Part shown: positions 1,386 through 54,292 of the stretch, in pieces | Position numbering within the stretch: the stretch's first letter is position 1 | How the letters are laid out: each line of letters starts with the position of its first letter | From: Thermoanaerobaculia bacterium | GTDB lineage: Bacteria > Acidobacteriota > Thermoanaerobaculia > Gp7-AA8 | DNA length: 64,000 nt | Reading direction: 5' to 3' | Assembly: GCA_035546335.1 (NCBI GenBank) | Contig: DATKDP010000056.1 | Span: forward strand, 120,577 to 184,576 | Notes under the pieces: model-generated | Databases searched by the model: none | The model's input: only the letters and a program-made list of their open reading frames with translations | What the model was told of the DNA's origin: nothing | Program-made: the position numbers and the translations under genes

Positions 1386-1569
1386 GCCGTAATCATCGCA
1401 TCGGAATCCTCGCAGCGCACTCCAAGGACGTTTCCGACCCCGGAGAGGGCGGGGCTCGGGCTCCTCCGGGCGGCTTGGGTCGCTCTGGCAAGCACCTGGA
1501 CGAAGCGATTTGCGCTTCGTTGCAGTCGTGCGAGCCTGTTGCTCCGGCCGGCGCGCAACTGCTTCGCCC

Positions 1570-2136
1570 TTACGAGCTCAGTATCCGCTGAAGCTCTCCG
1601 ACTCTCTGTTCGAGCTCGGAATCAGGCAGAACCGGCACGGAACCATCGACATCGATCGACTCGTCGACGCTGATCCAGCTTCGGCAGCCGGCATACTCGC
1701 TCCGATTGATCACCTCGACGGGATGCGGAAGACGAAATGCTCGGACGGCAATGACGTGGACGAGCTGATCGGGCCTGAATCGAAAGCGCTCCTCGATCGT
1801 GTCCCGCTCGAAGATCACGAAGGGCTCGACCTGATGAAGGAGCCCCAACTCTCGAACACGAAAAACCGCTGCGACTTCACACCACAGCTCGATCGGCACA
1901 TGTTCCGGATTCTCGTCGGCGCGGTCCGTCCCGAGAAAGTGCCGGACGAACGACGGCTTGAATTGCCGTTCCTTCTGGTGCAGAAACGTCGGAAAGAGAT
2001 AGAAGCGATCCGCCTCGATCCCGAACGTCGGATCGGCAATCCCTCCTTTGCGCAGCAGGACGACCTGGTCGCCGGCCCCGAGCGCCGAGATCACAGACGC
2101 CCATTCCTTGAGCGCAGTGTGATTCGGCAGCTTCAT
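1570..2136 (-). CDS. conserved hypothetical protein (resembles DUF1802 family)
   Basis: Start MKLPNHTALKEWASVISALGAGDQVVLLRKGGIADPTFGIEADRFYLFPTFLHQKE. Its ATG overlaps the queD stop (ATGA on the minus strand at 2133-2136). Family name is from recall, not a search. Confidence 0.55.
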   Translation of the reverse strand: MKLPNHTALKEWASVISALGAGDQVVLLRKGGIADPTFGIEADRFYLFPTFLHQKERQFKPSFVRHFLGTDRADENPEHVPIELWCEVAAVFRVRELGLLHQVEPFVIFERDTIEERFRFRPDQLVHVIAVRAFRLPHPVEVINRSEYAGCRSWISVDESIDVDGSVPVLPDSELEQRVGELQRILSS

Positions 2137-2719: not shown

Positions 2720-2841
2720 TCCGTGCCACTCCTCCGGTGAGGAGGCATTATCGCGACTTTTCGCTTACCTGTCACCGAGCTCGCGAGCCGGCCCGAGGTC
2801 GTTCGCGAAGAGTCGTGTAGAATTCCGCCTCGCAACGAATA

Positions 2842-3350
2842 TGCCGTTACCGAAGAGCCTTCTCTGCGCCTCCTGCAAACACACCTACCCTGAAGGGTGG
2901 AGACGCTGCCCCTATTGCGGATACGACGCGGCAAGGGCAAAAAAAACGGCGGACGAAGCCAGACGACCGGGCGTCCAAAACAAAGGGGAGGAGCGTCGAG
3001 ATCAAGGCGATTCACGGCGGCGTGCGTCTCAGCCCAACAGGAGCGGGCGCCCAAGACCTCCGGCGGCTGGCACGCAGCAGCCGAAGCAACGACCTCAGCC
3101 TGCTCCCTCGTCACAGCCTCCAGCCGAGCGAGCCGCCGACGGCATGCGCCGGAAGCGGCGCCGGAGGCGGCGCGGAAAACAGAACGCCGCAGAAGGAACG
3201 GCGAGTGCGGAGTCCCCGAGAACACCCGCAGTCAGCACGGAGAAACCGGAAACTCCTCGGAACGGAGTGCCGGCAGCACCTCCGCAGCCGCCGCCTTCGA
3301 CCGATCAACCACGGCGACGACGGCGGCGCCCACGCCGGCGCCGCCCCTAG
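2842..3350 (+). CDS. putative zinc-ribbon protein with long Arg/Pro-rich low-complexity tail
   Basis: MPLPKSLLCASCKHTYPEGWRRCPYCGYD (CxxC-N12-CxxC) followed by a disordered tail ending RRRRRRPRRRRP. Three frames are open across 2850-3500, so the coding call is uncertain. Confidence 0.3.
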
Positions 3351-3354
3351 TCAA

Positions 3355-3440
3355 GCACCCGGACGAAGCTATTGCGCTGCGTTGCGGCATAGCAAGCCCT
3401 CGGCTCTGTCCCTCGCGCAAATGCTTCGTCCCTACGAAGA
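3355..3440 (+). repeat. about 86-bp inverted-repeat dispersed element (MITE/REP-like), copy 1
   Basis: Terminal IRs GCACCCGGACGAAGCTATTGCGCTGCG ... CGCGCAAATGCTTCGTCCCTACGA are near-perfect reverse complements. Four more copies lie at about 49394-49480, 49575-49662, 51860-51937 and 52029-52118. This copy sits between the convergent 3' ends of the Zn-ribbon ORF and the rhomboid-like gene. Confidence 0.8.
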
Positions 3441-3511
3441 GCACGGCAAGGGTGCTCTCGCCTCTCGCCTCTCGTCTCTCGCCTCTCAGGCGCTGGACGC
3501 CCGCTCTGGGT

Positions 3512-4441
3512 CTAGGATGACGAGGCTTCCAGACCCGATCGGTTCGCTTCTCGCTCGTCGTCTTTCGCCTCGGAATTCAGTCGCACGTACCGCACCGAGC
3601 ACTCCGCGAATCCCTCGCATCGAATGCAGTAGCGATCCTCATGCTCCGGCTTGTAGTCGGCGGGAGGACAGATGTTGACGCCGGGCACGATCTCCGGCTG
3701 GATCGTCGTGATGAGCGCATCGATCCGTCCGCGATCGCCACTGACGAGCGCCTCCTTCATGGTTCGGAATCGCTCGAGATTTGCGTCGCCGCCATCCTCC
3801 GCCTCACCGGAGGCCGGTTCGACGGGCTTGAAGGCCGGCCGTGGTCTGGCGATTCGAATGCGCCGGAATCGGAGATAGTAGACGAGGTAGGTGATCGCCG
3901 ATCCTCCGAACGCAGCGATGCCGATCGGACTGCGTCCCAGCACCTGAAGGATCAGATATCCGACTCCGATGTAGGCGAGCCATTTGACCTTCACCGGCAG
4001 AATGAAGAAGAGATAGAACACCTGGTCGGGGACCATGGTCGCAAAGATGAAGAGAAGGGGAAAGCTGATGAAGAAGGAGCCGAGCAGCGGCGTTCCGAGA
4101 ACCAGAGCGACGGCTGCCGATCCGACGACGGACAGCAAAATGAAGAGAACAAAATTCCGCGTCCCATACTCTTCCTCGACCGCACTTCCCATGATGTAGA
4201 GGATGAGCAGATTGAAAAAGAGTGCGATGGGCCCCGACTGCAGGAAGGGATAGGTGAAGAGGCGCCAGAATTCGCCCCCCAGGAACCGGCTTGCTTCGAA
4301 GGCGAAGAGAAACTGATACTTCTGAGCATCCTGGATCTGAAAGAAATAAAAAGCGATCGTCAGGAACAGAAGAATGTAGATCGAATTCAGATTCTCTCGA
4401 TAGCGCATCTCGGATTCCGGGCGAATGGATGGGCTGCGCAT
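3512..4441 (-). CDS. rhomboid-family-like polytopic membrane protein with Cys-rich C-terminal tail (catalytic Ser motif not evident)
   Basis: Multi-TM, low-GC hydrophobic core. TM2-like motif FFNLLILYIMGSAVEEEYGTRNFVLFILLSVVGSAAV resembles rhomboid HxxxN...G..E..G...F. No clear GxSG. C-terminal CIRCEGFAEC. Start chosen at MRSPS; MRYREN at 4408 is the alternative. Confidence 0.5.
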   Translation of the reverse strand: MRSPSIRPESEMRYRENLNSIYILLFLTIAFYFFQIQDAQKYQFLFAFEASRFLGGEFWRLFTYPFLQSGPIALFFNLLILYIMGSAVEEEYGTRNFVLFILLSVVGSAAVALVLGTPLLGSFFISFPLLFIFATMVPDQVFYLFFILPVKVKWLAYIGVGYLILQVLGRSPIGIAAFGGSAITYLVYYLRFRRIRIARPRPAFKPVEPASGEAEDGGDANLERFRTMKEALVSGDRGRIDALITTIQPEIVPGVNICPPADYKPEHEDRYCIRCEGFAECSVRYVRLNSEAKDDEREANRSGLEASSS

Positions 4442-4559
4442 CCCGCTCTCTCGGGAGCGCTTCCAGGGCGCCGCTCGTCTGGGCAACAGATGCGGCGCTC
4501 TCGAAAGTCCCATCGGGAGTGATTCCGGCGCGTGCGCATTGCCCAGCACGTCGTCGGTT

Positions 4560-4660
4560 CGCGCGCGTCACAGGAGCGGGCGCGGGACGCCCGCTCTCCC
4601 CGACGGTCGGCGACATCTTCGCGCGCGTCACAGGGGCGGGCGCGGGACGCCCGCTCTCCC
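4560..4660. repeat. tandem duplication (period about 59 bp) of a GC hairpin motif CGCGCGTCACAGGRGCGGGCGCGGGACGCCCGCTCTCCCC
   Basis: Two near-identical units at 4560-4601 and 4618-4660 (1 mismatch). Each contains a 9-bp stem GAGCGGGCG/CGCCCGCTC with loop cggga. The same hairpin recurs at 49527-49553, 51938-51965, 54258-54290 and, as a variant, at 62991-63029. Confidence 0.85.
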
Positions 4661-4701
4661 CGGGCCGGCGTCGCCGCTCACGACGCAGCGACACCGTCTC
4701 G

Positions 4702-9719: not shown

Positions 9720-10520
9720 TCAGGTCTCTCCCTGGATCATGGCCGTCCAATAGGCAACGTCTTCCGGCGACATCGTCCCGATTGGTTGAAGGCGTGCATC
9801 CTTGTAGCCGCAGCGACCGATGTCCGCGATGTATTGCGCGCGTGAGAGCAGCGTGCCGAAACAGATCTTTTCCCCGGGTGATGGCGCAGGATCGCGCCTC
9901 AGCTCGACCAGCAGCCCGTCCATGACCTCTTCCGGGATGTTGTCCCTCAGGTCGGGATAGATGAATCCGAACAGGATCAGATGCGCAAGGAGAAGGCGAG
10001 GAAACGGCGCAAAGCGAGCGAGCAGCCGATTCCAGTCGAGCGTCCGGCCGCACGCCTTGATCAGGTGCGCCACATCCGCACCATCGAAACGTTCACGCTC
10101 CATGATGAACGCCTTCGACCAGATCATCTCCTCGGGCGGACAGAGCGTGACCGGAATTCCGAGGACTTCGCCCACGACCGCATGCTCGAACCACTGGTCA
10201 TCCACCAGGGCGATGCCGTTGCCGGCGCCATAGATGAGGTCGATGAACTCGTCTCCGGCGTAGGCCTTGCCGAGCCAGTGCGGGAAGAGCATCTTGGTCC
10301 GAAATCCGGCGTCGGCGAGACGCTCGAGGGCAGGCTCGAGATCCTGCTGGCGGAGAAAGATGTCGAAGTCCTTGGTATTGCGCGCGATCCCCGTATACCA
10401 CTCGAAAGCGTAAGCACCGCCGACGAGCAGATCGATCCCCGATTCGCCCAGGGCTCGAATGGCGTTTCGATAGATCTCCCTGGTGCTCTGCTCCAGTCCA
10501 TTGTCGACCAGAAGTCCCAT
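9720..10520 (-). CDS. nucleotidyltransferase-fold protein (Pol-beta superfamily, uncharacterised NTase family)
   Basis: LLVGGAYAFEWYTGIARNTKDFDIF matches the GS-x(n)-DxD minimal NTase motif. First gene of a three-gene minus-strand operon with the phosphoesterase and SOD. Confidence 0.6.
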   Translation of the reverse strand: MGLLVDNGLEQSTREIYRNAIRALGESGIDLLVGGAYAFEWYTGIARNTKDFDIFLRQQDLEPALERLADAGFRTKMLFPHWLGKAYAGDEFIDLIYGAGNGIALVDDQWFEHAVVGEVLGIPVTLCPPEEMIWSKAFIMERERFDGADVAHLIKACGRTLDWNRLLARFAPFPRLLLAHLILFGFIYPDLRDNIPEEVMDGLLVELRRDPAPSPGEKICFGTLLSRAQYIADIGRCGYKDARLQPIGTMSPEDVAYWTAMIQGET

Positions 10521-17626: not shown

Positions 17627-17850
17627 GTGGCAGGCTCGGGGAAAGTCAACTCGGGGCTCGAGGCTCGAGGCTCGAGGCTCGAGGCTCGAGGCTCGGGGCT
17701 CGGGGCTCGGGGCTCGGGGCTCGGGGCTCGGGGCTCGGGGCTCGGGGCTCGAGGATTCCCACGACCTGGATTTCGAGCCTCTAGTCTCGAGCCTCTAGTC
17801 TCGAGCCTCTAGTCTCGAGCCTCTAGTCTCGAGCCTCTAGTCTCGAGGTG
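17627..17850. repeat. tandem heptamer array (GGCTCGA)5(GGCTCGG)8 followed by (TCGAGCCTCTAGTC)5, forming a long imperfect palindrome
   Basis: Direct reading of 17660-17752 and 17773-17848. The 14-mer contains TCGAGCC, the reverse complement of GGCTCGA. Short copies also lie at 49318-49340 and 49690-49715. The proS stop codon (TAG) lies inside the 14-mer array. Confidence 0.9.
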
Positions 17851-36000: not shown

Positions 36001-36340
36001 CTCGTGGTGAGCGCGAAGCGCCACCACCGGTCACGGCACGACACGTCATGAAGTCGCGGCACCCCGAAGGGGTGAATGGAACACAGCCGGTGGTGAGCGC
36101 GAAGCGCCACCACCGGAACTGCGACGTTCCGCCGAAAGAACGCGGCACCCCGGAAGGGGTGCCCGGATCCCCTTACCAGAGGAATCGTGAATCGAACTCG
36201 AGTCCATTCGCTTCACCACCGGCTGTGTTCCGGGCACCCCTTCGGGGTGCGGGATGTGACGATGTGTTGTGCCCTGACCGGTGGTGGCGCTTCGCGCTCA
36301 CCACCGGCTGGAATCCCTGCACCCCTTCGGGGTGTCGTTG
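36001..36340. repeat. composite palindromic cluster of two alternating hairpin motifs (H1 CCGGTGGTGAGCGCGAAGCGCCACCACCGG; H2 GCACCCCGAAGGGGTGC)
   Basis: H1 at 36003-36030 and 36086-36115, reverse at 36278-36310. H2 at 36057-36075, 36143-36165, 36233-36255 and 36317-36338. Left-arm units are reverse complements of right-arm units around about 36190. Confidence 0.85.
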
Positions 36341-38084: not shown

Positions 38085-38280
38085 AGAGTAGAGGGCAGAT
38101 AGCAGAGGGCAGAGGGCAGATAGCAGAGGGCAGATGGCAGATGGCAGATGGCAGATGGCAGAGAGCAGATAGCAGAGAGAGGGCGTGGAAGGCGGTCGGG
38201 AGGGGGAACGCAGACGGCAGATGCGAAGCGCGCATCTTCCGTCTGCTATCTGCTATTTGCTATCTGCTCTATCCGCTCTC
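38085..38280. repeat. tandem octamer array (GGCAGATR/GCAGAGG) plus inverted partner array (CTGCTATCT) forming a large imperfect palindrome with a central 15-bp stem
   Basis: 38091-38180 (GGCAGATG x4 perfect). 38211-38245 hairpin CAGACGGCAGATGCG-aag-CGCATCTTCCGTCTG. 38246-38280 is the reverse-complement array. Confidence 0.9.
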
Positions 38281-47846: not shown

Positions 47847-49271
47847 TCAACCGAGCGGCAACTGCTCGAGCAGCCTTCTGAGGCGCCTCAGCGTCCTCTC
47901 GCGTCCCAGGGCGATCATGACGTCGAAGATCGGCGGAGAGTTGCCGACCCCCATCAGCGCCACCCGCAGCGGATGAATGTACTTCGCCGCCGAGACCCCC
48001 TCCCCCTCCGCGAGCTTACGCAGCGCCGCTTCTGCCGCCGCTTCGTTCCACTCGCCGAGCGCCGAAAACGCCTCGAGAAGAGCGTCCAGCCGTCTCGTCA
48101 CGTCCGCCCCTTTCAGATGCTTCTTCACCGCCTCATCGTCATAAGCGATCGTTTCGTCATCGACGAAATAAGGAGCGATGAGCTCCGCGAGGTCGCGCAG
48201 CGTCCGCCCCCGGGCTTGATTCAGTCGGATCACGCGCAACAGCCGCTCCCCATCATCGATCGCGACGGTGAGAAACGGCTCGAGATGCGGAACGATCTCC
48301 TCGGGCGGCTTGCGGCTCAGATACTGACCGTTCATCCAGACCAGCTTGTCGGCATCGAACACGGCCGGAGCCTTGTGCACATCACGGAGGTCGAACGCCT
48401 CGATCGCCTCCTCGCGCGTGAGAATTTCCCGATCGCCCCCGGGCGACCAGCCGAGAAGCAGCAGGAAATTGAAGAGAGCGTCGGGAAGGATGCCCATCTC
48501 ACGATACTCCTCCGCGGACGTCGCGCCCGTCCGTTTGCTCAACCGCTTCCGATCGCTGCCGAGGATCAGCGGCAGGTGTGCGAACTGCGGCGGCTCTGCG
48601 CCGAATGCGCGGAAGAGAAGAATATGCTTCGGGGTGTTCGACAGATGATCGTCACCGCGGGCAACGATCGTTATGCCCATGTCGATGTCGTCGACCACCA
48701 CGGAGAGGTGATACGTCGGGTGCCCGTCCGATCGCAGAACTACGAAATCGTCGATCGTCTCTCCCTCGAAGTGAACCGGGCCGCGGATCAGATCGTCGAA
48801 ATCGACCGGGCCGGGCGGGACGCGAAAGCGAACGACGAAACGCTCCTCCTCCCGCGACTCTCCCCTGTCGGCTGCACTCCGGCACTTGCCCGAGTAGCGA
48901 TAGGAACGGCCGTCCTTTTCCGCTTCCTCGCGCTCGCGCTCGAGCTCTTCGACCGTGCAATGACAGCGGTAGGCACCGCCGCGCTCGACCAGCTCGATCG
49001 CCCGCTGACGATATCGGTCGATGCGATCGCTCTGGTAGATGGGTCCCTCGTCCCACGCGACACCGAGCCACTCGAGCGAAGCGACGATCTGCTCGGCATG
49101 ATGCTGCCGCGAGCGCTCCGCGTCCGTGTCCTCGATCCGCAGAAGCATCGTGCCGCCGTAACGCCGTGCGTGCAGCAGATTGAAAATCGCCGTCCGCGCA
49201 CCTCCTACATGGAGGTACCCCGTCGGAGAAGGGGCGAATCGAAGCTTCATTCGGTCGTTGATCTCACGCAT
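47847..49271 (-). CDS. gltX: glutamyl-tRNA synthetase
   Basis: KLRFAPSPTGYLHVGGARTAIFN (HIGH), KLSKR (KMSKS). Start taken at MREINDRMKLRF; the longer ORF upstream is a translation of the repeat element. Confidence 0.9.
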   Translation of the reverse strand: MREINDRMKLRFAPSPTGYLHVGGARTAIFNLLHARRYGGTMLLRIEDTDAERSRQHHAEQIVASLEWLGVAWDEGPIYQSDRIDRYRQRAIELVERGGAYRCHCTVEELEREREEAEKDGRSYRYSGKCRSAADRGESREEERFVVRFRVPPGPVDFDDLIRGPVHFEGETIDDFVVLRSDGHPTYHLSVVVDDIDMGITIVARGDDHLSNTPKHILLFRAFGAEPPQFAHLPLILGSDRKRLSKRTGATSAEEYREMGILPDALFNFLLLLGWSPGGDREILTREEAIEAFDLRDVHKAPAVFDADKLVWMNGQYLSRKPPEEIVPHLEPFLTVAIDDGERLLRVIRLNQARGRTLRDLAELIAPYFVDDETIAYDDEAVKKHLKGADVTRRLDALLEAFSALGEWNEAAAEAALRKLAEGEGVSAAKYIHPLRVALMGVGNSPPIFDVMIALGRERTLRRLRRLLEQLPLG

Positions 49272-49299
49272 TCGAGAGCCGGAAAGTCTACCCCACCCG

Positions 49300-49745
49300 G
49301 CCCGGCGTCGAGTAGCGAGGCTCGGGGCTCGAGGCTCGAATGGCAACCGGTCTTTGGCCGCGTCGATGGTTCTCAGGAAACCCCGTCGAATTCTCGTAGG
49401 GGCGAAGCATTTGCGCGCAGGCCGCAGCGACAGGCTCGCGTTACCGGAGCGCAGCGCAATAGCTTCGCCCGGGTGCTTGCGAGAATGTGACATGGCGGTG
49501 GGTCGATTCGCGCCGCCCTGCAACCCGGGGCGGCGCGGGACGCCCGCTCTCCCGCAGAGGTTCGTTCGATCATCGCAAGCACCCGGACGAAGCTATTGCT
49601 CTCCGTTACGGCGTTGCAAGCCCGCCGCTCTGTCCATCGCGCAAATGCTTCGTCCCTACGAGGGCCGCCCGTCGATGTTCCGGAAGCCCCCCTCGAGCCT
49701 CGAGTCTCCAGCCTCCCCCCCGCGCATCTCCGCTACAATCGATGG
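49300..49745. repeat. composite repeat cluster: heptamer fragment, MITE-like copy (reverse), GC hairpin, MITE-like copy (forward), heptamer fragment
   Basis: 49318-49340 GGCTCGGGGCTCGAGGCTCGA. 49394-49480 element copy 2 (reverse). 49527-49553 GGGGCGGCGCGGGACGCCCGCTCTCCC. 49575-49662 element copy 3. 49690-49715 CCTCGAGCCTCGAG. Confidence 0.85.
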
Positions 49746-49746
49746 A

Positions 49747-50151
49747 GTGCAGAGAAGCTGCTCACGGCTGGCCGGGTTCACGCTGGTCGAGATCCTGGTG
49801 GCGCTCGTCATACTCGGCCTGATCGTGACGACGTCGCTGGCCATCTTCTACGATCGCCAGAAACGGCTGCGGGCCGCGGATGAGATGATCATCGCCTGGC
49901 AGATTCTCGCCAACGAGGCGGAGGTCTGGAGGCACCGCCCGTACGACTCTCTCGTGCCCGGCGCATCCTCCGCGTTTCTCTCCGATCCGGAGCTTCTCGC
50001 GCAGCTCCCGGGCGCCAAGGCGTCAGCGGCAATCGAGCACTCCGGGCCGGCATTGAGAAGCATTCACCTGACAATCCACTGGAGCGACAGCGCGAAGAAA
50101 GCCGAGGTCGCAGTACTGCGGAGCGACACGGGAGGAGGAAGCCTGTGGTGA
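49747..50151 (+). CDS. prepilin-type N-terminal cleavage/methylation domain protein (pseudopilin, GspG/H-like)
   Basis: GTG start gives leader MQRSCSRLAG followed by FTLVEILVALVILGLI (class III signal). Confidence 0.6.
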   Translation: MQRSCSRLAGFTLVEILVALVILGLIVTTSLAIFYDRQKRLRAADEMIIAWQILANEAEVWRHRPYDSLVPGASSAFLSDPELLAQLPGAKASAAIEHSGPALRSIHLTIHWSDSAKKAEVAVLRSDTGGGSLW

Positions 50152-50645
50152 GCAGGCGGCGGCCGAGCGGCTTTTCTCTGATGGAGATGGTCGTGGCGAT
50201 CGCGCTGCTCGGAATCTTTCTTCTCGTTCTCGTCGCTCTGGAAAGCGAGATGTTCCGGCTCGAGCGGTCGATCCGGATCAACATGATGTCGCATCCCGAT
50301 CCGACCGCTGTGCTGAGCCGGTTGCGGCGCGACGTCCTCGACTCTCACGGCTATCCGGAGGCGATCGATGGTCACGAGCAGAGCGAATCGACTCTGATCC
50401 TGCTCGGCCTGGCGGAAGATGGAGCGTGGGAGACGATCGCATGGGACTTCAGCGAAGAGGGGGTGGCGCGACGGATCACCTACAGAAGCGGGGAGAAGGT
50501 GGGAGAATGGACCGCCGGAAACGTCCCCGTTTTCACGATCGCGAGCTTCGACATGCCGGATGGCGGGGTCGCGGTGCGCGTTCAGGCCCGCCACGGAGGG
50601 AAGCTTGCAATCGACGGGATTTTCCAGCCGCGCATCCACGGCTGA
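50145..50645 (+). CDS. prepilin-type pseudopilin
   Basis: MVSRRRPSG-FSLMEMVVAIALLGIF. Confidence 0.6.
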   Translation: MVSRRRPSGFSLMEMVVAIALLGIFLLVLVALESEMFRLERSIRINMMSHPDPTAVLSRLRRDVLDSHGYPEAIDGHEQSESTLILLGLAEDGAWETIAWDFSEEGVARRITYRSGEKVGEWTAGNVPVFTIASFDMPDGGVAVRVQARHGGKLAIDGIFQPRIHG

Positions 50646-51024
50646 CCAGCGAGGTTTCGCACTGATCAGCGCGCTGGTTCTGGCGATGCTCTTCTTCGCC
50701 CTCATGACGCTCGTGATGGTCGAGTCGACGTCCGCCTTGCGATCCGCGACGCGATTCCGCGCGCGCGTCCGTGCCGAGATCCTCGCCGAGAACGCCGCCG
50801 AGCTGGCCGCCAGGAACATGGTCAGCGCACCCGGCTCCGACGCAACCCTTCAGAACGATGACGGCACGATGCACGGCAGCTATCGGCGCCTGGCGGAGAA
50901 TCGGTTCGAGATCACCGGGACCGGAGACGCGGCGGGCCCGATGAAAGTCTCCGCGAGAGTCCGCCTCTTCGGAACCGTGGAAGGGAGCACGATTCGACTC
51001 GATCGGACGATCCACGGGCGATGA
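50560..51024 (+). CDS. prepilin-type pseudopilin-like protein (start uncertain)
   Basis: ...QRG-FALISALVLAMLFFAL. The only in-frame ATG upstream of the G-F site is at 50560, giving an 85-nt overlap with the previous gene. The ATG at 50686 would remove the cleavage motif. Confidence 0.4.
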   Translation: MAGSRCAFRPATEGSLQSTGFSSRASTADQRGFALISALVLAMLFFALMTLVMVESTSALRSATRFRARVRAEILAENAAELAARNMVSAPGSDATLQNDDGTMHGSYRRLAENRFEITGTGDAAGPMKVSARVRLFGTVEGSTIRLDRTIHGR

Positions 51025-51863
51025 AGGCGGGAACGCGAGGGTTGATACCGGTCCTGCTGTCGGTGCTGGTCATCGCCGGCTGCATGGACCGCGAGCAGCG
51101 GGCGTTCTCGCTCGGGACGACGACGAGCATCGAGAACTCCGGTCTTCTGGCCCACCTCACCCGCGCATTTCACGAGCACCACGGAATCGCCGTCCGGCCG
51201 ATTGTGGTCGGCTCGGGAAAGGCGCTGCGTCTCGCCGAGCAGGGAACCATCGATCTGGTCCTCTCACACGACCGGCACGGTGAGCAACGTCTCCTCCAGA
51301 GCGGGCGCGTTGCGCTCTACCGGCAGTTCATGCGCAACGATTTCGTGATCGCCGGTCCTGCGGAGAACCCCGCCGGCCTCGAGCAGAGCGACACGCCTTC
51401 CGCGGCGCTGGCGAAGATCGCATCTTCCGGCAATCGATTCGCCTCGAGAGGAGATCAGTCGGGAACTCACATCCGGGAGCTCTCCCTCTGGCGCGAAGCC
51501 GGAATCGACCCCCGACAGCGTTCCTTCTATTACCCGCTGGGACAGTCGATGAGCTCTCTTCTTCGTTCGTCCAGTGAGCTGCGCGCCTACGTTCTGACCG
51601 ATCGCGCCACCTTCGAGCAGGTCCGCAGCGCGATTGCCCTGACGATTCTGATCGAGGACCACCCTTCGCTCGAGAACCTGTACGCCGTGACGCTCATGCA
51701 ACCGACAGCCCGCAATCGGGAGGAGTGGGAGCATGCGCGCCTATTCGCCGAATGGCTGCTTTCCGCCGAGGGGATGGCAGCGATCTCGAGTTTCACGATT
51801 CGAGGCCGGACCGTTTTCGTTCCGATCGAACCAGGCCGCGTCCCGCCGTCAAACTCCCCGTAG
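51021..51863 (+). CDS. tupA: tungstate/molybdate ABC-transporter substrate-binding lipoprotein (TupA/WtpA-like), orphan
   Basis: Lipobox (VIAGC). FSLGTTTSIENSGLL...PIVVGSGKALRLAEQGTIDLVLSHD...NDFVIAGP...FASRGDQSGTH matches TupA. No permease or ATPase genes adjacent. The stop TAG lies inside a repeat-element terminus. Confidence 0.7.
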   Translation: MKAGTRGLIPVLLSVLVIAGCMDREQRAFSLGTTTSIENSGLLAHLTRAFHEHHGIAVRPIVVGSGKALRLAEQGTIDLVLSHDRHGEQRLLQSGRVALYRQFMRNDFVIAGPAENPAGLEQSDTPSAALAKIASSGNRFASRGDQSGTHIRELSLWREAGIDPRQRSFYYPLGQSMSSLLRSSSELRAYVLTDRATFEQVRSAIALTILIEDHPSLENLYAVTLMQPTARNREEWEHARLFAEWLLSAEGMAAISSFTIRGRTVFVPIEPGRVPPSNSP

Positions 51864-52135
51864 GGACTTGTGCGAGGGACAGAGTGGGGAACTTGCGAAA
51901 CCGCAGCGCAGCGCAAATGCTTCGTCCGGGTGCTTGCAGGGAGAGCGGGCGTCCCGCGCCCGCCTCGGGTGGGCGGGTGGCGCGCATTCAGGCGGTTCAT
52001 GCGAGCACGTGCCGAAGCTGCCGTGCTCCTCGTAGGGACGAAGCATTTGCGCGAGGGACGGCGCAGGGGACTTGACAGAGCGCAGCGCAGCGCAATAGCT
52101 TCGTCCGGGTGCACGGGTAGCCCGCAAACGGTCCT
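51860..52135. repeat. composite repeat cluster: MITE-like copy 4 (reverse, small internal deletion), GC hairpin (reverse), MITE-like copy 5 (reverse)
   Basis: 51860-51937; 51938-51965 GGGAGAGCGGGCGTCCCGCGCCCGCCTC; 52029-52118. Confidence 0.85.
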
Positions 52136-52168
52136 GCGCAAGGCGTTCCCGAATCGTGGTGTGACTTC

Positions 52169-54223
52169 ATGACCGGAATGACGATATCGCCTATCGCTGC
52201 CCTCACCGGAAACGCCGTCGGGGCGTTCGTCATCGCGCTGCTGTTTCTCGCGTTCCTCTTCCGTTATCGGGGAGCCTACCTTCGACCGTGGGCCTTCTTC
52301 TGGATCGCAACGACACTTCATCACGCAGCGAGCGCCCTGACCCTGCACCTGCGCGCGTCGAGCCAGTCTGGAGCGGTCCTGGCGGGTTGCGCTGCGGGAG
52401 CATTCGGCTGGGCGGCGCTCGGATGGCTGCTGCTCGGCTGCCACGAGCTCGCCTTCCGGCGGCCGGCGCGACCCCTGCCGCGATCGATCCTGGTTCCCGC
52501 TCTCGCGGCAACGGGCGCGGTCGCAGGCGCACTGCTGCTGCTCATGACGAGCCGCAACGAGCCGTTTCTCTCGCTTTCGACCCAGGGTCCCATCGCCGCC
52601 GTGGTCGCCATCCTGGCCGCACGCTGGTTGTGGCGCGAGGGTGGACGGCGCAACCTTCTCGGATTCAACCTGATGGTGGTCGCCCTGGCGGTCTATGCAG
52701 CCGTTCAGATGCATGCCACCAGCGTCGTGGTGGAGCTGATGACCGGCGGGAGCTCGTGGAGACTCGGACTGCTGGTTCCCTTCCTCGACTTTTACCTTCA
52801 GGCCATGCTTGCGGTCGGGATGGCGTCGTCGATTCTGGAAGACGAGCGCGAGACCGCGCGACTGGCGACGATCGCGATCGAGCGGCTCGCCTATCATGAC
52901 GCCCTGACCGGACTGCCCAACCGTCCTCTCTTCATGGACCGGCTGATCATGGCTACGGCCCTGGCCGAGCGTACGAAACAACAGATCGCCGTCTTCTTTC
53001 TCGACCTCGACCGCTTCAAGGACATCAATGACTCTCTCGGGCACACCGCGGGAGACATGCTGCTCAAAGGGGTGGCCGAGCGGATTCGCGGCTGCGTGCG
53101 CCAGTCGGACACTCTGGCACGCTTCGGAGGCGACGAGTTCACGATTCTCGTTCAGAGGCTCGAGAAGGTGGAGTATGCAGCGAAGGTCGCGCAGAAGATT
53201 CTCGAAGTCATCCGGATCCCTTTTCTGATCGGCGAGCGCGAGCTGTTCGTGACCACGAGCATCGGCATCAGCATCTACCCTCATGACGGACTCGATGCCG
53301 AGACGCTGGTCAAGCATGCCGACATCGCGATGTATCGCGCGAAGGAGCGCGGCCGCGACGACTATGAGCTCTACACCGCGGCGATGAATCAGCACGCGCT
53401 CGAGAGAATCGCCCTGGAGGGAATGCTTCGAAAAGCGATCGGCAGCGACGAGCTCATCCTCCATTACCAGCCGATCATCGACCTCCACACGCATCGATTG
53501 GTGTCGGTCGAAGCGCTCATCCGGTGGAACCACCCCACGCTCGGGCTGATCGCGCCCGCGCATTTCATCTCCGTCGCCGAGCTCTCCGGCCTGATCATTC
53601 CGATCGGCAAATGGGTCCTCAGCGAAGCGTGCCGCCAGGCACGCGCCTGGAAGGGGAAGACGGGAAGGGACATCCGCGTTTCGATCAATCTCTCCGCCAG
53701 GCAGTTCCAGCAGACGGACCTGCTCACGATGGTGCGGACCACCCTCGAACGGACCGGACTCGAGCCGCATCTTCTGGAGATCGAGATCACCGAAAGCAGC
53801 GCCATGTCGAACGCCGATCTGGCGATCCGGACACTACTCGATCTCAAATCGCTCGGCGTGCGGATCGCCATGGATGATTTCGGCACCGGCTACTCCTCGC
53901 TCAGCTATCTCAAACGCTTCCCGATCGACTGTCTGAAGCTCGATCAGTCCTTCGTCCGTGACATCGTCACCGACGAAGGCGACGCGGCGATCATCGGCGC
54001 GGTCGTGGCCATGGCGCACATCCTGGGGATCGAAGTCGTCGCCGAGGGGGTGGAGACGGAGGAGCAGTTTCGACTGCTGGCAGCGAAGTCGTGCGATCGG
54101 ATTCAGGGATTTCTCTTCAGCCATCCCCTCCCGGCCGAACGGCTCGAGCAGCTCCTGCTCGCCGATCCCACCTGGTTTCTTCCCTCGGCTTCAGCCGAGC
54201 GCGTCCGATCGATCGAAACGTGA
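52169..54223 (+). CDS. membrane-anchored diguanylate cyclase/phosphodiesterase (multi-TM sensor plus GGDEF plus EAL)
   Basis: About 8 N-terminal TM helices. ARFGGDEF (intact GGDEF). EALIRW and downstream EAL-domain motifs (DDFGTGYSSLSYL, QGFLF). Confidence 0.85.
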   Translation: MTGMTISPIAALTGNAVGAFVIALLFLAFLFRYRGAYLRPWAFFWIATTLHHAASALTLHLRASSQSGAVLAGCAAGAFGWAALGWLLLGCHELAFRRPARPLPRSILVPALAATGAVAGALLLLMTSRNEPFLSLSTQGPIAAVVAILAARWLWREGGRRNLLGFNLMVVALAVYAAVQMHATSVVVELMTGGSSWRLGLLVPFLDFYLQAMLAVGMASSILEDERETARLATIAIERLAYHDALTGLPNRPLFMDRLIMATALAERTKQQIAVFFLDLDRFKDINDSLGHTAGDMLLKGVAERIRGCVRQSDTLARFGGDEFTILVQRLEKVEYAAKVAQKILEVIRIPFLIGERELFVTTSIGISIYPHDGLDAETLVKHADIAMYRAKERGRDDYELYTAAMNQHALERIALEGMLRKAIGSDELILHYQPIIDLHTHRLVSVEALIRWNHPTLGLIAPAHFISVAELSGLIIPIGKWVLSEACRQARAWKGKTGRDIRVSINLSARQFQQTDLLTMVRTTLERTGLEPHLLEIEITESSAMSNADLAIRTLLDLKSLGVRIAMDDFGTGYSSLSYLKRFPIDCLKLDQSFVRDIVTDEGDAAIIGAVVAMAHILGIEVVAEGVETEEQFRLLAAKSCDRIQGFLFSHPLPAERLEQLLLADPTWFLPSASAERVRSIET

Positions 54224-54257
54224 CGGGAGTCGAGCACGTTGCATCGTCTCGTGTTGT

Positions 54258-54290
54258 GACAGGTGCGGGCGCGAAACGCCCGCTCTCCCC
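54258..54290. terminator. GC hairpin (GCGGGCG-cgaaa-CGCCCGC) between convergent GGDEF-EAL and EF-G genes; probable bidirectional terminator or REP-like element
   Basis: Member of the conserved hairpin family. Lies in the 69-bp gap between stop codons at 54223 and 54293. No U-tract. Confidence 0.4.
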
Positions 54291-54292
54291 TA

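Follow-up and report, generated by a model that had tools for sequence, protein, structure and literature searches.

The hairpin repeats most similar to those described here are the repetitive extragenic palindromes (REPs) of TnpA_REP (RayT) transposases of subclass 2.4, which, in the survey by Quentin et al. (2018; PMC6006769), are reported as common in cyanobacteria and scattered over many phyla; this subclass is equated with RAYT group 4 of Bertels et al. (2017) (PMC6006769; PMC5581495). According to the same survey, the transposases carry the motifs NH[IFV]H, WQ, and YIxNNP; their "canonical long" REPs have three G-C pairs at the bottom of the stem, their "double foot" REPs combine a 5' GT[AG]G with a 3' C[TC]AC, and an in-frame REP inside the tnpA_REP gene, between HuH and Y, is reported as unique to this subclass (PMC6006769). 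Some genomes reportedly contain REPs without a tnpA_REP gene (PMC6006769; PMC3733652). The REP/BIME elements of Escherichia coli share with the element described below a GTAG foot on an imperfect palindrome, clusters of alternating orientation that are interleaved with other short motifs, and an extragenic location, often right after stop codons; yet they are only about 35 nt long with short loops, their arms show no sequence similarity to the arms found here, and the E. coli RayT (TnpA_REP, YafM; PDB 4ER8) belongs to subclass 2.2, as opposed to the subclass 2.4 enzymes that are linked to the widespread form of the present arms. The REPINs of Pseudomonas fluorescens SBW25 (Bertels and Rainey, 2011; PMC3116915) offer a parallel in layout, with two inverted arms and a spacer forming one hairpin; they measure roughly 70-110 nt, are non-autonomous, are thought to be moved by a single-copy RayT, and form a diverging population within the genome (PMC3116915). 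Their RayT falls into RAYT group 3 instead of group 4, their sequences are unrelated, and, unlike theirs, the arms described here are not themselves clear palindromes. Finally, bacterial MITEs such as Nezha, Correia/NEMIS, and RUP are also small and extragenic, have terminal inverted repeats, and may fold in transcripts; in contrast to these, the present element has neither a target-site duplication nor a parental DDE insertion sequence, and the enzyme class linked to it is HUH/Y1. As candidates, attC sites, CRISPR-like units, and Tn3-type ends were discarded; their end motifs do not fit, and the GTA/TAC of the element lies within the palindrome and is not a duplication.

The element in the window (the whole 64-kb stretch of DNA that was analysed, from a Thermoanaerobaculia MAG of the Acidobacteriota, with a G+C content of 62.7%) is a REP/REPIN, a member of a known and fairly ordinary class, and not a MITE in the strict sense. 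Six copies occur in the window (Table 1), and an nhmmer profile of the copies returned exactly these six and no more. A sequence-only reading had listed five copies, all of which exist within a few bases of where it had placed them; the diverged copy 0 came to light in a search with the 17-nt arm core GGACGAAGCWWTTGCGC, which, at up to three mismatches, has 10 matches in the window against 1.08 expected, a number that none of 100 shuffles reached. The copies are distributed equally over both strands (three each), and four of the six lie in two clusters. Identity between copies ranges from 60 to 91%. A MAFFT alignment has a mean column identity of 76% and shows (near-)invariance at the left arm, GCACCCGG(A/G)CGAAGC, and at the right end, CCCTACG; a value of 82% was also obtained for mean column identity. 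An origin as fragments of a protein family was ruled out, since the copies occur in both orientations, lie between anchored genes, and can be aligned as DNA but not as codons.

Table 1. Positions of the 86-bp element, of other short repeats, and of anchored genes in the window, and arrangement of hairpins around rayT genes in other loci (locus coordinates are given where available).
Feature	Position	Strand	Remarks
Copy 0, diverged	1489..1575	+	Family D3, 60% ungapped identity; nhmmer E=1.6e-21
Copy 1, intact hairpin	3352..3437	+	Left arm GCACCCGGACGAAGCTATTGCGC; right arm GCGCAAATGCTTCGTCCCTACGA
Copy 2, intact	49394..49479	-	Compensatory stem variant GGGCGAAGC/GCTTCGCCC; GTAG foot 49396-49399, + strand
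Copy 3	49576..49661	+	Outer stem intact; one inner-stem change (TTGCTC)
Copy 4, degenerate	51858..51937	-	7-nt deletion takes most of foot-side arm
Copy 5, intact hairpin	52030..52114	-	Best fold statistics of the copies: z=-2.95, DNA z=-3.37
G+C-rich hairpin unit, GAGCGGGCG-CGGGA-CGCCCGCTC	49511..49555		Unrelated to the 86-bp element; between copies 2 and 3; family D5
G+C-rich hairpin unit, inverted copy	51939..51971		Between copies 4 and 5
G+C-rich hairpin unit, further copies	4558-4602, 4618-4662, 54247-54291
Tandem heptamer arrays and runs	17650-17751, 17773-17847, 38090-38177, 38242-38268, 3455-3487, 49316-49339		Intergenic
J-domain gene	633-1385	-
Rhomboid gene	3512-4549	-
gltX	47847-49250	-	467 aa; GltX 100% identical to record of source MAG
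Pseudopilin-like gene	from about 49759	+
PBP-like gene	51021-51863	+	HVT44031.1, 280 aa
GGDEF-EAL gene	52169-54223	+
L128			Two GTAGGGGCGAAGC-type hairpins upstream of rayT
L129-L134			Two or three GTAGGGGCGAAGC-type hairpins, ending 12 bp short of the rayT start codon
L135/L136 (Anabaena azotica)	L136 3335-3353 (arm)		One hairpin 36 bp upstream of rayT; arm inside the gene
L143 (Deltaproteobacteria MAG)	2784-2855		Hairpin inside rayT
L144/L145 (Chloroflexi MAG)	L144 2766-2807		Hairpin inside rayT; upstream foot remnant
L146/L147 (cyanobacterium)	L146 2841-2853 (arm)		Upstream array; arm inside rayT

The termini had been described as imperfect reverse complements of each other, and the arm alignment and the predicted fold agree. 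The predicted hairpin of an intact copy consists of a 9-bp outer stem (GGACGAAGC / GCTTCGTCC, also written GGACGAAGC/GCUUCGUCC) that is followed inward by a 2x2 internal loop, an inner stem of 6 bp (UUGCGC/GCGCAA), and a 37-nt interior that is partly conserved between copies; with arms of 17-23 nt and a spacer of 37 nt, it has the two-arm layout of REPINs. The decay of REPINs gives rise to singlets, and copy 4 looks like a unit in decay. Both stems are predicted in five of the six copies with RNA as well as DNA parameters, the exception being copy 4, which lacks one arm; the internal loop (TA opposite AT) is identical in all intact copies, and the outer stem of copy 2 shows a compensatory change (GGGCGAAGC/GCUUCGCCC) that replaces one A-U pair by G-C. 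Taken singly, the copies have fold z-scores of modest size (-0.8 to -3.4). The stem of copy 0 is weak, with an A.C mismatch and an altered internal loop, and copy 4, which has AT in place of TA in its other arm, has no stable predicted fold (z=+1.86). On the foot-bearing strand, 5'-TCGTAGGGACGAAGCATTTGCGC, the GTAG is unpaired and lies directly 5' of the predicted stem; (C)GTAG immediately precedes the stem in copies 1-5, on one strand only (in copy 1 the - strand, 3432-3435), and copy 0 has GTAA in this position. The opposite end reads GCACCC, which is not a foot, and the element therefore has a polarity. At the bottom of the stem, the triplet is GGG/CCC in copy 2 alone and GGA/TCC in copies 1, 3, and 5; among the decayed copies, the foot-side arm is deleted in copy 4, and copy 0 has the A.C mismatch at the third position. 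A GTAG foot directly below the stem is the defining geometry of REPs, and it was this foot that pointed to REPs and RayT transposases (PMC3733652, PMC2817692).

All copies are intergenic, as had been proposed, with respect to the anchored genes (gltX and the pseudopilin-like, PBP-like, GGDEF-EAL, rhomboid, and J-domain genes); four proteins of the window carry accessions of the MAG in the range HVT43981.1 to HVT44038.1, and the window belongs to a contig of 226,849 bp. Copy 0 is located upstream of the J-domain gene, copy 1 between convergent genes, copies 2 and 3 in the divergent spacer between gltX and the pseudopilin-like gene, and copies 4 and 5 between the PBP-like and GGDEF-EAL genes, with copy 5 ending 55 bp upstream of the latter. 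Two stop codons had been reported to be supplied or abutted by an element terminus, and both were found: TAG at 3348-3350 stops one base short of copy 1, and TAG at 51861-51863 is part of the GTAG foot of copy 4 (51860-51863) and ends HVT44031.1. Since the GTAG of copy 4 supplies the stop of the PBP-like gene, its insertion defines the present C-terminus of this protein. The anticipated hazard to gene calling is real as well, with the longest open reading frames crossing the repeats: the frame at 47847-49523 (-) yields a 558-aa "GltX" instead of the real 467 aa starting at 49250, and the frame at 49180-50151 (+) yields a 323-aa pseudopilin-like product whose real start lies near 49759. The value of recognizing the element lies mainly in annotation; the hairpins create spurious reading frames and false N-terminal extensions, once supply a gene's stop codon, and break assemblies, as seen in an independent contig of the same organism and in the many metagenome contigs that end in the related form (both described below).

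The position of copy 1 one base past a stop codon and between convergent genes, the position of copies 4 and 5 after a gene end, and the conservation of the stems would also be in keeping with a host-selected cis element, i.e., an RNA 3'-end stabiliser, a terminator, or a binding site for a host protein that is kept for its function. Secondary roles of the RNA 3'-end and protein-binding kind are known for E. coli REPs (reviewed in PMC3733652). Selection for such a function is nevertheless a very unlikely explanation of the element; the copies point either way with respect to the genes beside them, copies 0, 2, and 3 lie in divergent promoter regions, no U-tract follows the stem, the gene neighbors of the wider family are unrelated, and syntenic loci of relatives are without the element. 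What comes after the stems is CCCTACGA or GGGTGC, neither of which has the T-run of an intrinsic terminator, and a terminator/promoter scan placed no site at the copies. Rfam 15 gave zero matches at the gathering score over the whole window, and a search of 49250-52250 at E<=5 gave matches at chance level only. Where REP hairpins moved by a RayT happen to fall into transcripts, they could act secondarily as 3'-end stabilisers or protein-binding sites.

Comparison with related genomes shows that the copies fill spacers that are short elsewhere. The nearest GltX relatives are about 70% identical, and their gene order is the same, with gltX divergent from three adjoining pseudopilin-like genes; the spacer between them measures 53 bp (L138, L139) or 105 bp (L140), vs. 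about 508 bp in the window, where the additional sequence consists of copy 2, a G+C-rich hairpin, copy 3, and heptamer repeats. Neither an arm search nor the nhmmer profile found the element in 45 kb of these relatives. In one of them (L140), the PBP-like gene is absent, and the pseudopilin genes meet the GGDEF-EAL gene across an 18-bp spacer. A Logan assembly made independently for this organism (SRR8556377) includes a 2,327-bp contig whose start lies within copy 3 and whose end lies immediately past copy 4; these breaks suggest that many similar copies exist genome-wide.

At least 127 stretches from public genomes and metagenomes, ranging in G+C content from 31 to 68%, contain the arm sequence, GTAGGGGCGAAGCATTTGC ... 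GCAAATGCTTCGCCCCTAC. A two-arm search pattern (12+12 fixed bases, spacer 25-50) located seven stretches in 185,579 species genomes (one genome per species), hosted by cyanobacteria, one Armatimonadota MAG, and one unclassified MAG; a slightly relaxed pattern gave at least 120 metagenome matches, on contigs of 31-68% G+C. With a single match in viral contigs, phages do not suggest themselves as the vehicle. In its widespread form, the element is a perfect palindrome with a foot at either end, in which GTAGGGGCGAAGCATTTGC and GCAAATGCTTCGCCCCTAC enclose 29-37 variable bases (mode 34, as measured from the TTGC to the GCAA that the search pattern fixes). As a caveat, part of the arm conservation in these collection scans follows from the search pattern itself, which prescribed 12+12 bases; across 109 non-identical complete elements, seven bases outside this fixed pattern (GTAGGGG) are conserved on both sides, the first pair inside it covaries (AT 25, GC 18, CG 18, TA 9), and pairing drops to background just past GTAG/CTAC, where the flanks are random. 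Several metagenome contigs bear two or three copies, and many stop inside an element, as is expected for a dispersed repeat; the Armatimonadota contig has half-sites in tandem clusters, and half-site arrays occur in L007 and L026. An all-against-all BLASTP comparison of the 127 loci did not yield a conserved gene neighbor, as only ABC ATPases recurred, a chance result of paralogue abundance, and the neighbors are unrelated. A literature search by arm sequence returned unrelated primer matches or nothing.

One metagenomic population of about 50% G+C (Ga0105046, Ga0335394; loci L012, L020, L028, L031, L038, L043, L044, L059, L073, L086, L103, and L104) contains many near-identical double-foot hairpins in both orientations, which are set in a mosaic of other short repeats 120-250 bp in length; roughly half of these contigs break off within a hairpin. 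A longer parent element was considered and rejected, as all that is shared around the hairpin in this one population is the mosaic.

The window element and the widespread form are nearly identical in the arm (TCGTAGGGACGAAGCATTTGCGC vs. GTAGGGGCGAAGCATTTGC(GC)). When the widespread elements were compared with the nhmmer profile built from the window copies, they matched only weakly (E around 1e-6 or weaker) and only from profile position 10 on. The widespread metagenomic and cyanobacterial elements have a foot at both ends, whereas the window copies have CTAC at one end and GCACCC at the other; the conserved 2x2 internal loop of the window form is absent from the widespread form, and the bottom of the stem mostly has G-C, G-C, and A-T pairs in the former and three G-C pairs in the latter. 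The window element resembles subclass 2.4 REPs in having a 5' GT[AG]G foot directly below a long hairpin whose stem is G-C-rich at the bottom, and both are extragenic, multi-copy, and without target duplication; it differs in having one foot instead of two, an A-T pair at the third stem position in four of the six copies, an interior of 37 nt as compared to the 29-37 nt (mode 34) found elsewhere, and a host among the Thermoanaerobaculia. By these sequence likenesses, the window element is a single-foot relative of the subclass 2.4 double-foot REP. Its earlier designation as a previously unannotated family holds for the exact single-foot variant, which was not found beyond the window in the genome and metagenome data searched, but not for the long, double-foot type to which it belongs, which is among the REPs described in the subclass 2.4 survey (PMC6006769).

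The assignment to subclass 2.4 is based on RayT genes near the widespread hairpin. Phmmer searches with 19 published RayT/TIRYT sequences found no Y1_Tnp/RayT gene in the 64-kb window or in L001-L007, and four Y1-transposase-like ORFs among the metagenome loci (L066, L014, L097, and L092). The RayT-like genes of L014 and L097 were left out as evidence, since they have their own, different REPs (GTAGCGCGGG... and CCCAGGCNGAGCCTGGG), and L092 contains a 62-aa Y1-like fragment without Pfam match, about 1.1 kb from the element. In L066, a Y1_Tnp ORF of 168 aa begins 38 bp downstream of the hairpin, between moxR-like and DUF58 genes; at E<=1e-10, 7,831 homologues of this RayT were found, many of them named "REP element-mobilizing transposase RayT" by JGI, and their hosts include Chloroflexi, Anabaena, and Deltaproteobacteria. 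Against PDB sequences, phmmer gave no match for it at E<=0.01. Further loci were obtained from the DNA around six homologues of 46-62% identity (Table 1), and in all seven independent loci examined, a GTAGGGGCGAAGC hairpin lies 12-50 bp upstream of the RayT gene and/or in frame inside it; in none of the seven does a hairpin lie downstream of rayT. The inner stem varies by locus (ATTTGC, ATCGCC, TTCGCC, ATTCGC, ATTGG), and the opposite arm changes with it and stays complementary. The aligned RayTs share the motifs MPNHLHGI, WQRNYYE, and YIxxNP, and contain a variable insert, GEALAN...QCFAPT, which is the translated hairpin; this peptide resembles the RKCFVPT of the six-frame translation of the window. 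This RayT clade thus shows the published hallmarks of subclass 2.4 (NHxH, WQ, YIxxNP, and in-frame REPs between HuH and Y), and the widespread element is therefore a double-foot REP of this subclass. As judged from sequence comparison, the arms of the window element are homologous to a hairpin of many phyla that is physically linked to genes of subclass 2.4 RayTs, which are IS200-like HUH/Y1 enzymes.

The surroundings of these genes add some detail. In two metagenomic genomes, the hairpin(s) and rayT (L066, 1762-2378; L128, 2759-3507) are flanked by a moxR-like AAA ATPase gene on one side and by a DUF58 gene on the other, with the rayT stop overlapping the DUF58 start, and the two RayTs are 62% identical; the identical site suggests vertical inheritance of a single-copy RayT. 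The RayT-like genes of L097 (1-960) and L014 (7359-8095) are found amid the REP families GT(T/G)CCCAGGC(N)GAGCCTGGG(A/C)AC and GTAGCGCGGG/GTAGCGCCGA, respectively; since a GTAGGGGCGAAGC hairpin has landed near them, several REP families coexist at repeat-rich spots.

The recurrence of a Y1/HUH transposase, which makes no target-site duplications, as the sole recurrent neighboring enzyme also bears on the designation "MITE/REP-like" that had been given to the element. A classical MITE would be an internally deleted insertion sequence of a DDE transposase, moved in trans via its terminal inverted repeats and creating target-site duplications; the length of about 86 bp, the terminal inverted repeats of 17-23 nt, and the extragenic location would suit it. 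Such an origin is extremely improbable. Flanking direct repeats were found neither at the ends of the six window copies nor at those of the 109 related elements, in which pairing and conservation end at GTAG/CTAC, and about 1 Mb of loci yielded no transposase ORF with the arms at its ends; in L003, L040, and L063, unpaired arms have a possible partner 0.7-3 kb away, and an unpaired arm lies 0.7-2.5 kb from a complete element in opposing orientation. The REP-like half of the designation stands, on account of the GTAG foot, the multi-copy and extragenic occurrence in both orientations, the mosaics, and the homology of the arms to RayT-linked hairpins; the MITE half lacks support, since neither a target-site duplication nor a longer element or DDE transposase enclosed by the arms was found.

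It is probable that the six elements are non-coding, non-autonomous, GTAG-footed hairpin repeats of REP/REPIN type, moved by a RayT whose gene would be located elsewhere in the genome. A RayT encoded there, now or formerly, would bind the hairpin that folds in single-stranded DNA, such as that of the replication fork, read the GTAG foot, and cut and rejoin the strand, thereby excising the element or copying it into other extragenic positions; cutting and rejoining in this manner would leave no target-site duplication. The chemistry would be the hairpin-guided, single-strand cutting and joining that is established for E. coli TnpA_REP and the IS200/IS605 transposases. Recognition of the element as REP-type predicts a RayT gene elsewhere in the Thermoanaerobaculia genome; if present, it would extend the REP-RayT system to the class Thermoanaerobaculia, which is not mentioned in those parts of the surveys that name some Acidobacteria. 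The extent to which the copies have diverged, together with the decay of two of them, suggests a population that is old and slow to turn over, as opposed to a recent burst; with copies 60-91% identical and two of them degenerate, current mobility is doubtful. Taken further, the copies could be relics that were spread by a since-lost RayT and are now immobile and decaying, their present role being incidental or acquired by the host later. Differences of 9-40% between copies, the lost arm of copy 4, the mismatched stem of copy 0, and a window without RayT would agree with this, as would the REPs without tnpA_REP gene reported for some genomes (PMC6006769, PMC3733652). Relic status is nevertheless unlikely, as four copies have both stems intact, including the compensatory change, and an independent assembly breaks at the copies; the search for RayT covered 64 kb of the genome.

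The 19-nt arms of the widespread form are almost invariant in genomes of 31-68% G+C, while the loop of approximately 34 nt varies freely. This near-invariance across phyla provides a modest lead on what constrains RayT specificity, and opens no new kind of biology. One could speculate that the GTAGGGGCGAAGC-footed hairpin and the subclass 2.4 RayT travel between phyla as one unit, a hairpin-plus-transposase element whose recognition site would be unusually constrained, and that the window form, with its single foot and fixed 2x2 internal loop, is a lineage-specific re-specification that co-evolved with a divergent RayT of the Acidobacteriota; the proposal is rather unlikely to be correct.

The REP/REPIN element shares the window with other small repeats (Table 1). 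In both of its two-copy clusters, a G+C-rich hairpin unit sits between the copies and creates a mosaic; this unit has conserved flanks, TTCGCGCGCGTCACAGG...TCCCCG, and no GTAG foot, and two of its further copies (4558-4602 and 4618-4662) form a tandem pair after the rhomboid gene. The intergenic tandem heptamers include CTCGGGG repeated 14.6 times and followed by a 14-mer repeated 5.4 times, and AGATGGC repeated 12 times, with an inverted TCTGCTA array 65 bp off. Short heptamer runs adjoin copies 1, 2, and 3; in inverted orientation, they also fill the gltX spacer of the relative L140 (about 9900-10000), and they flank the related hairpins in Nostocaceae contigs as well (L002, L004). At 36004-36337, in the spacer that follows a 961-aa ORF, the small palindromes GGTGGTGAGCGCGAAGCGCCACCACCGG and GGCACCCCGAAGGGGTG form a dense mosaic in both orientations, which may represent another REP-like family.
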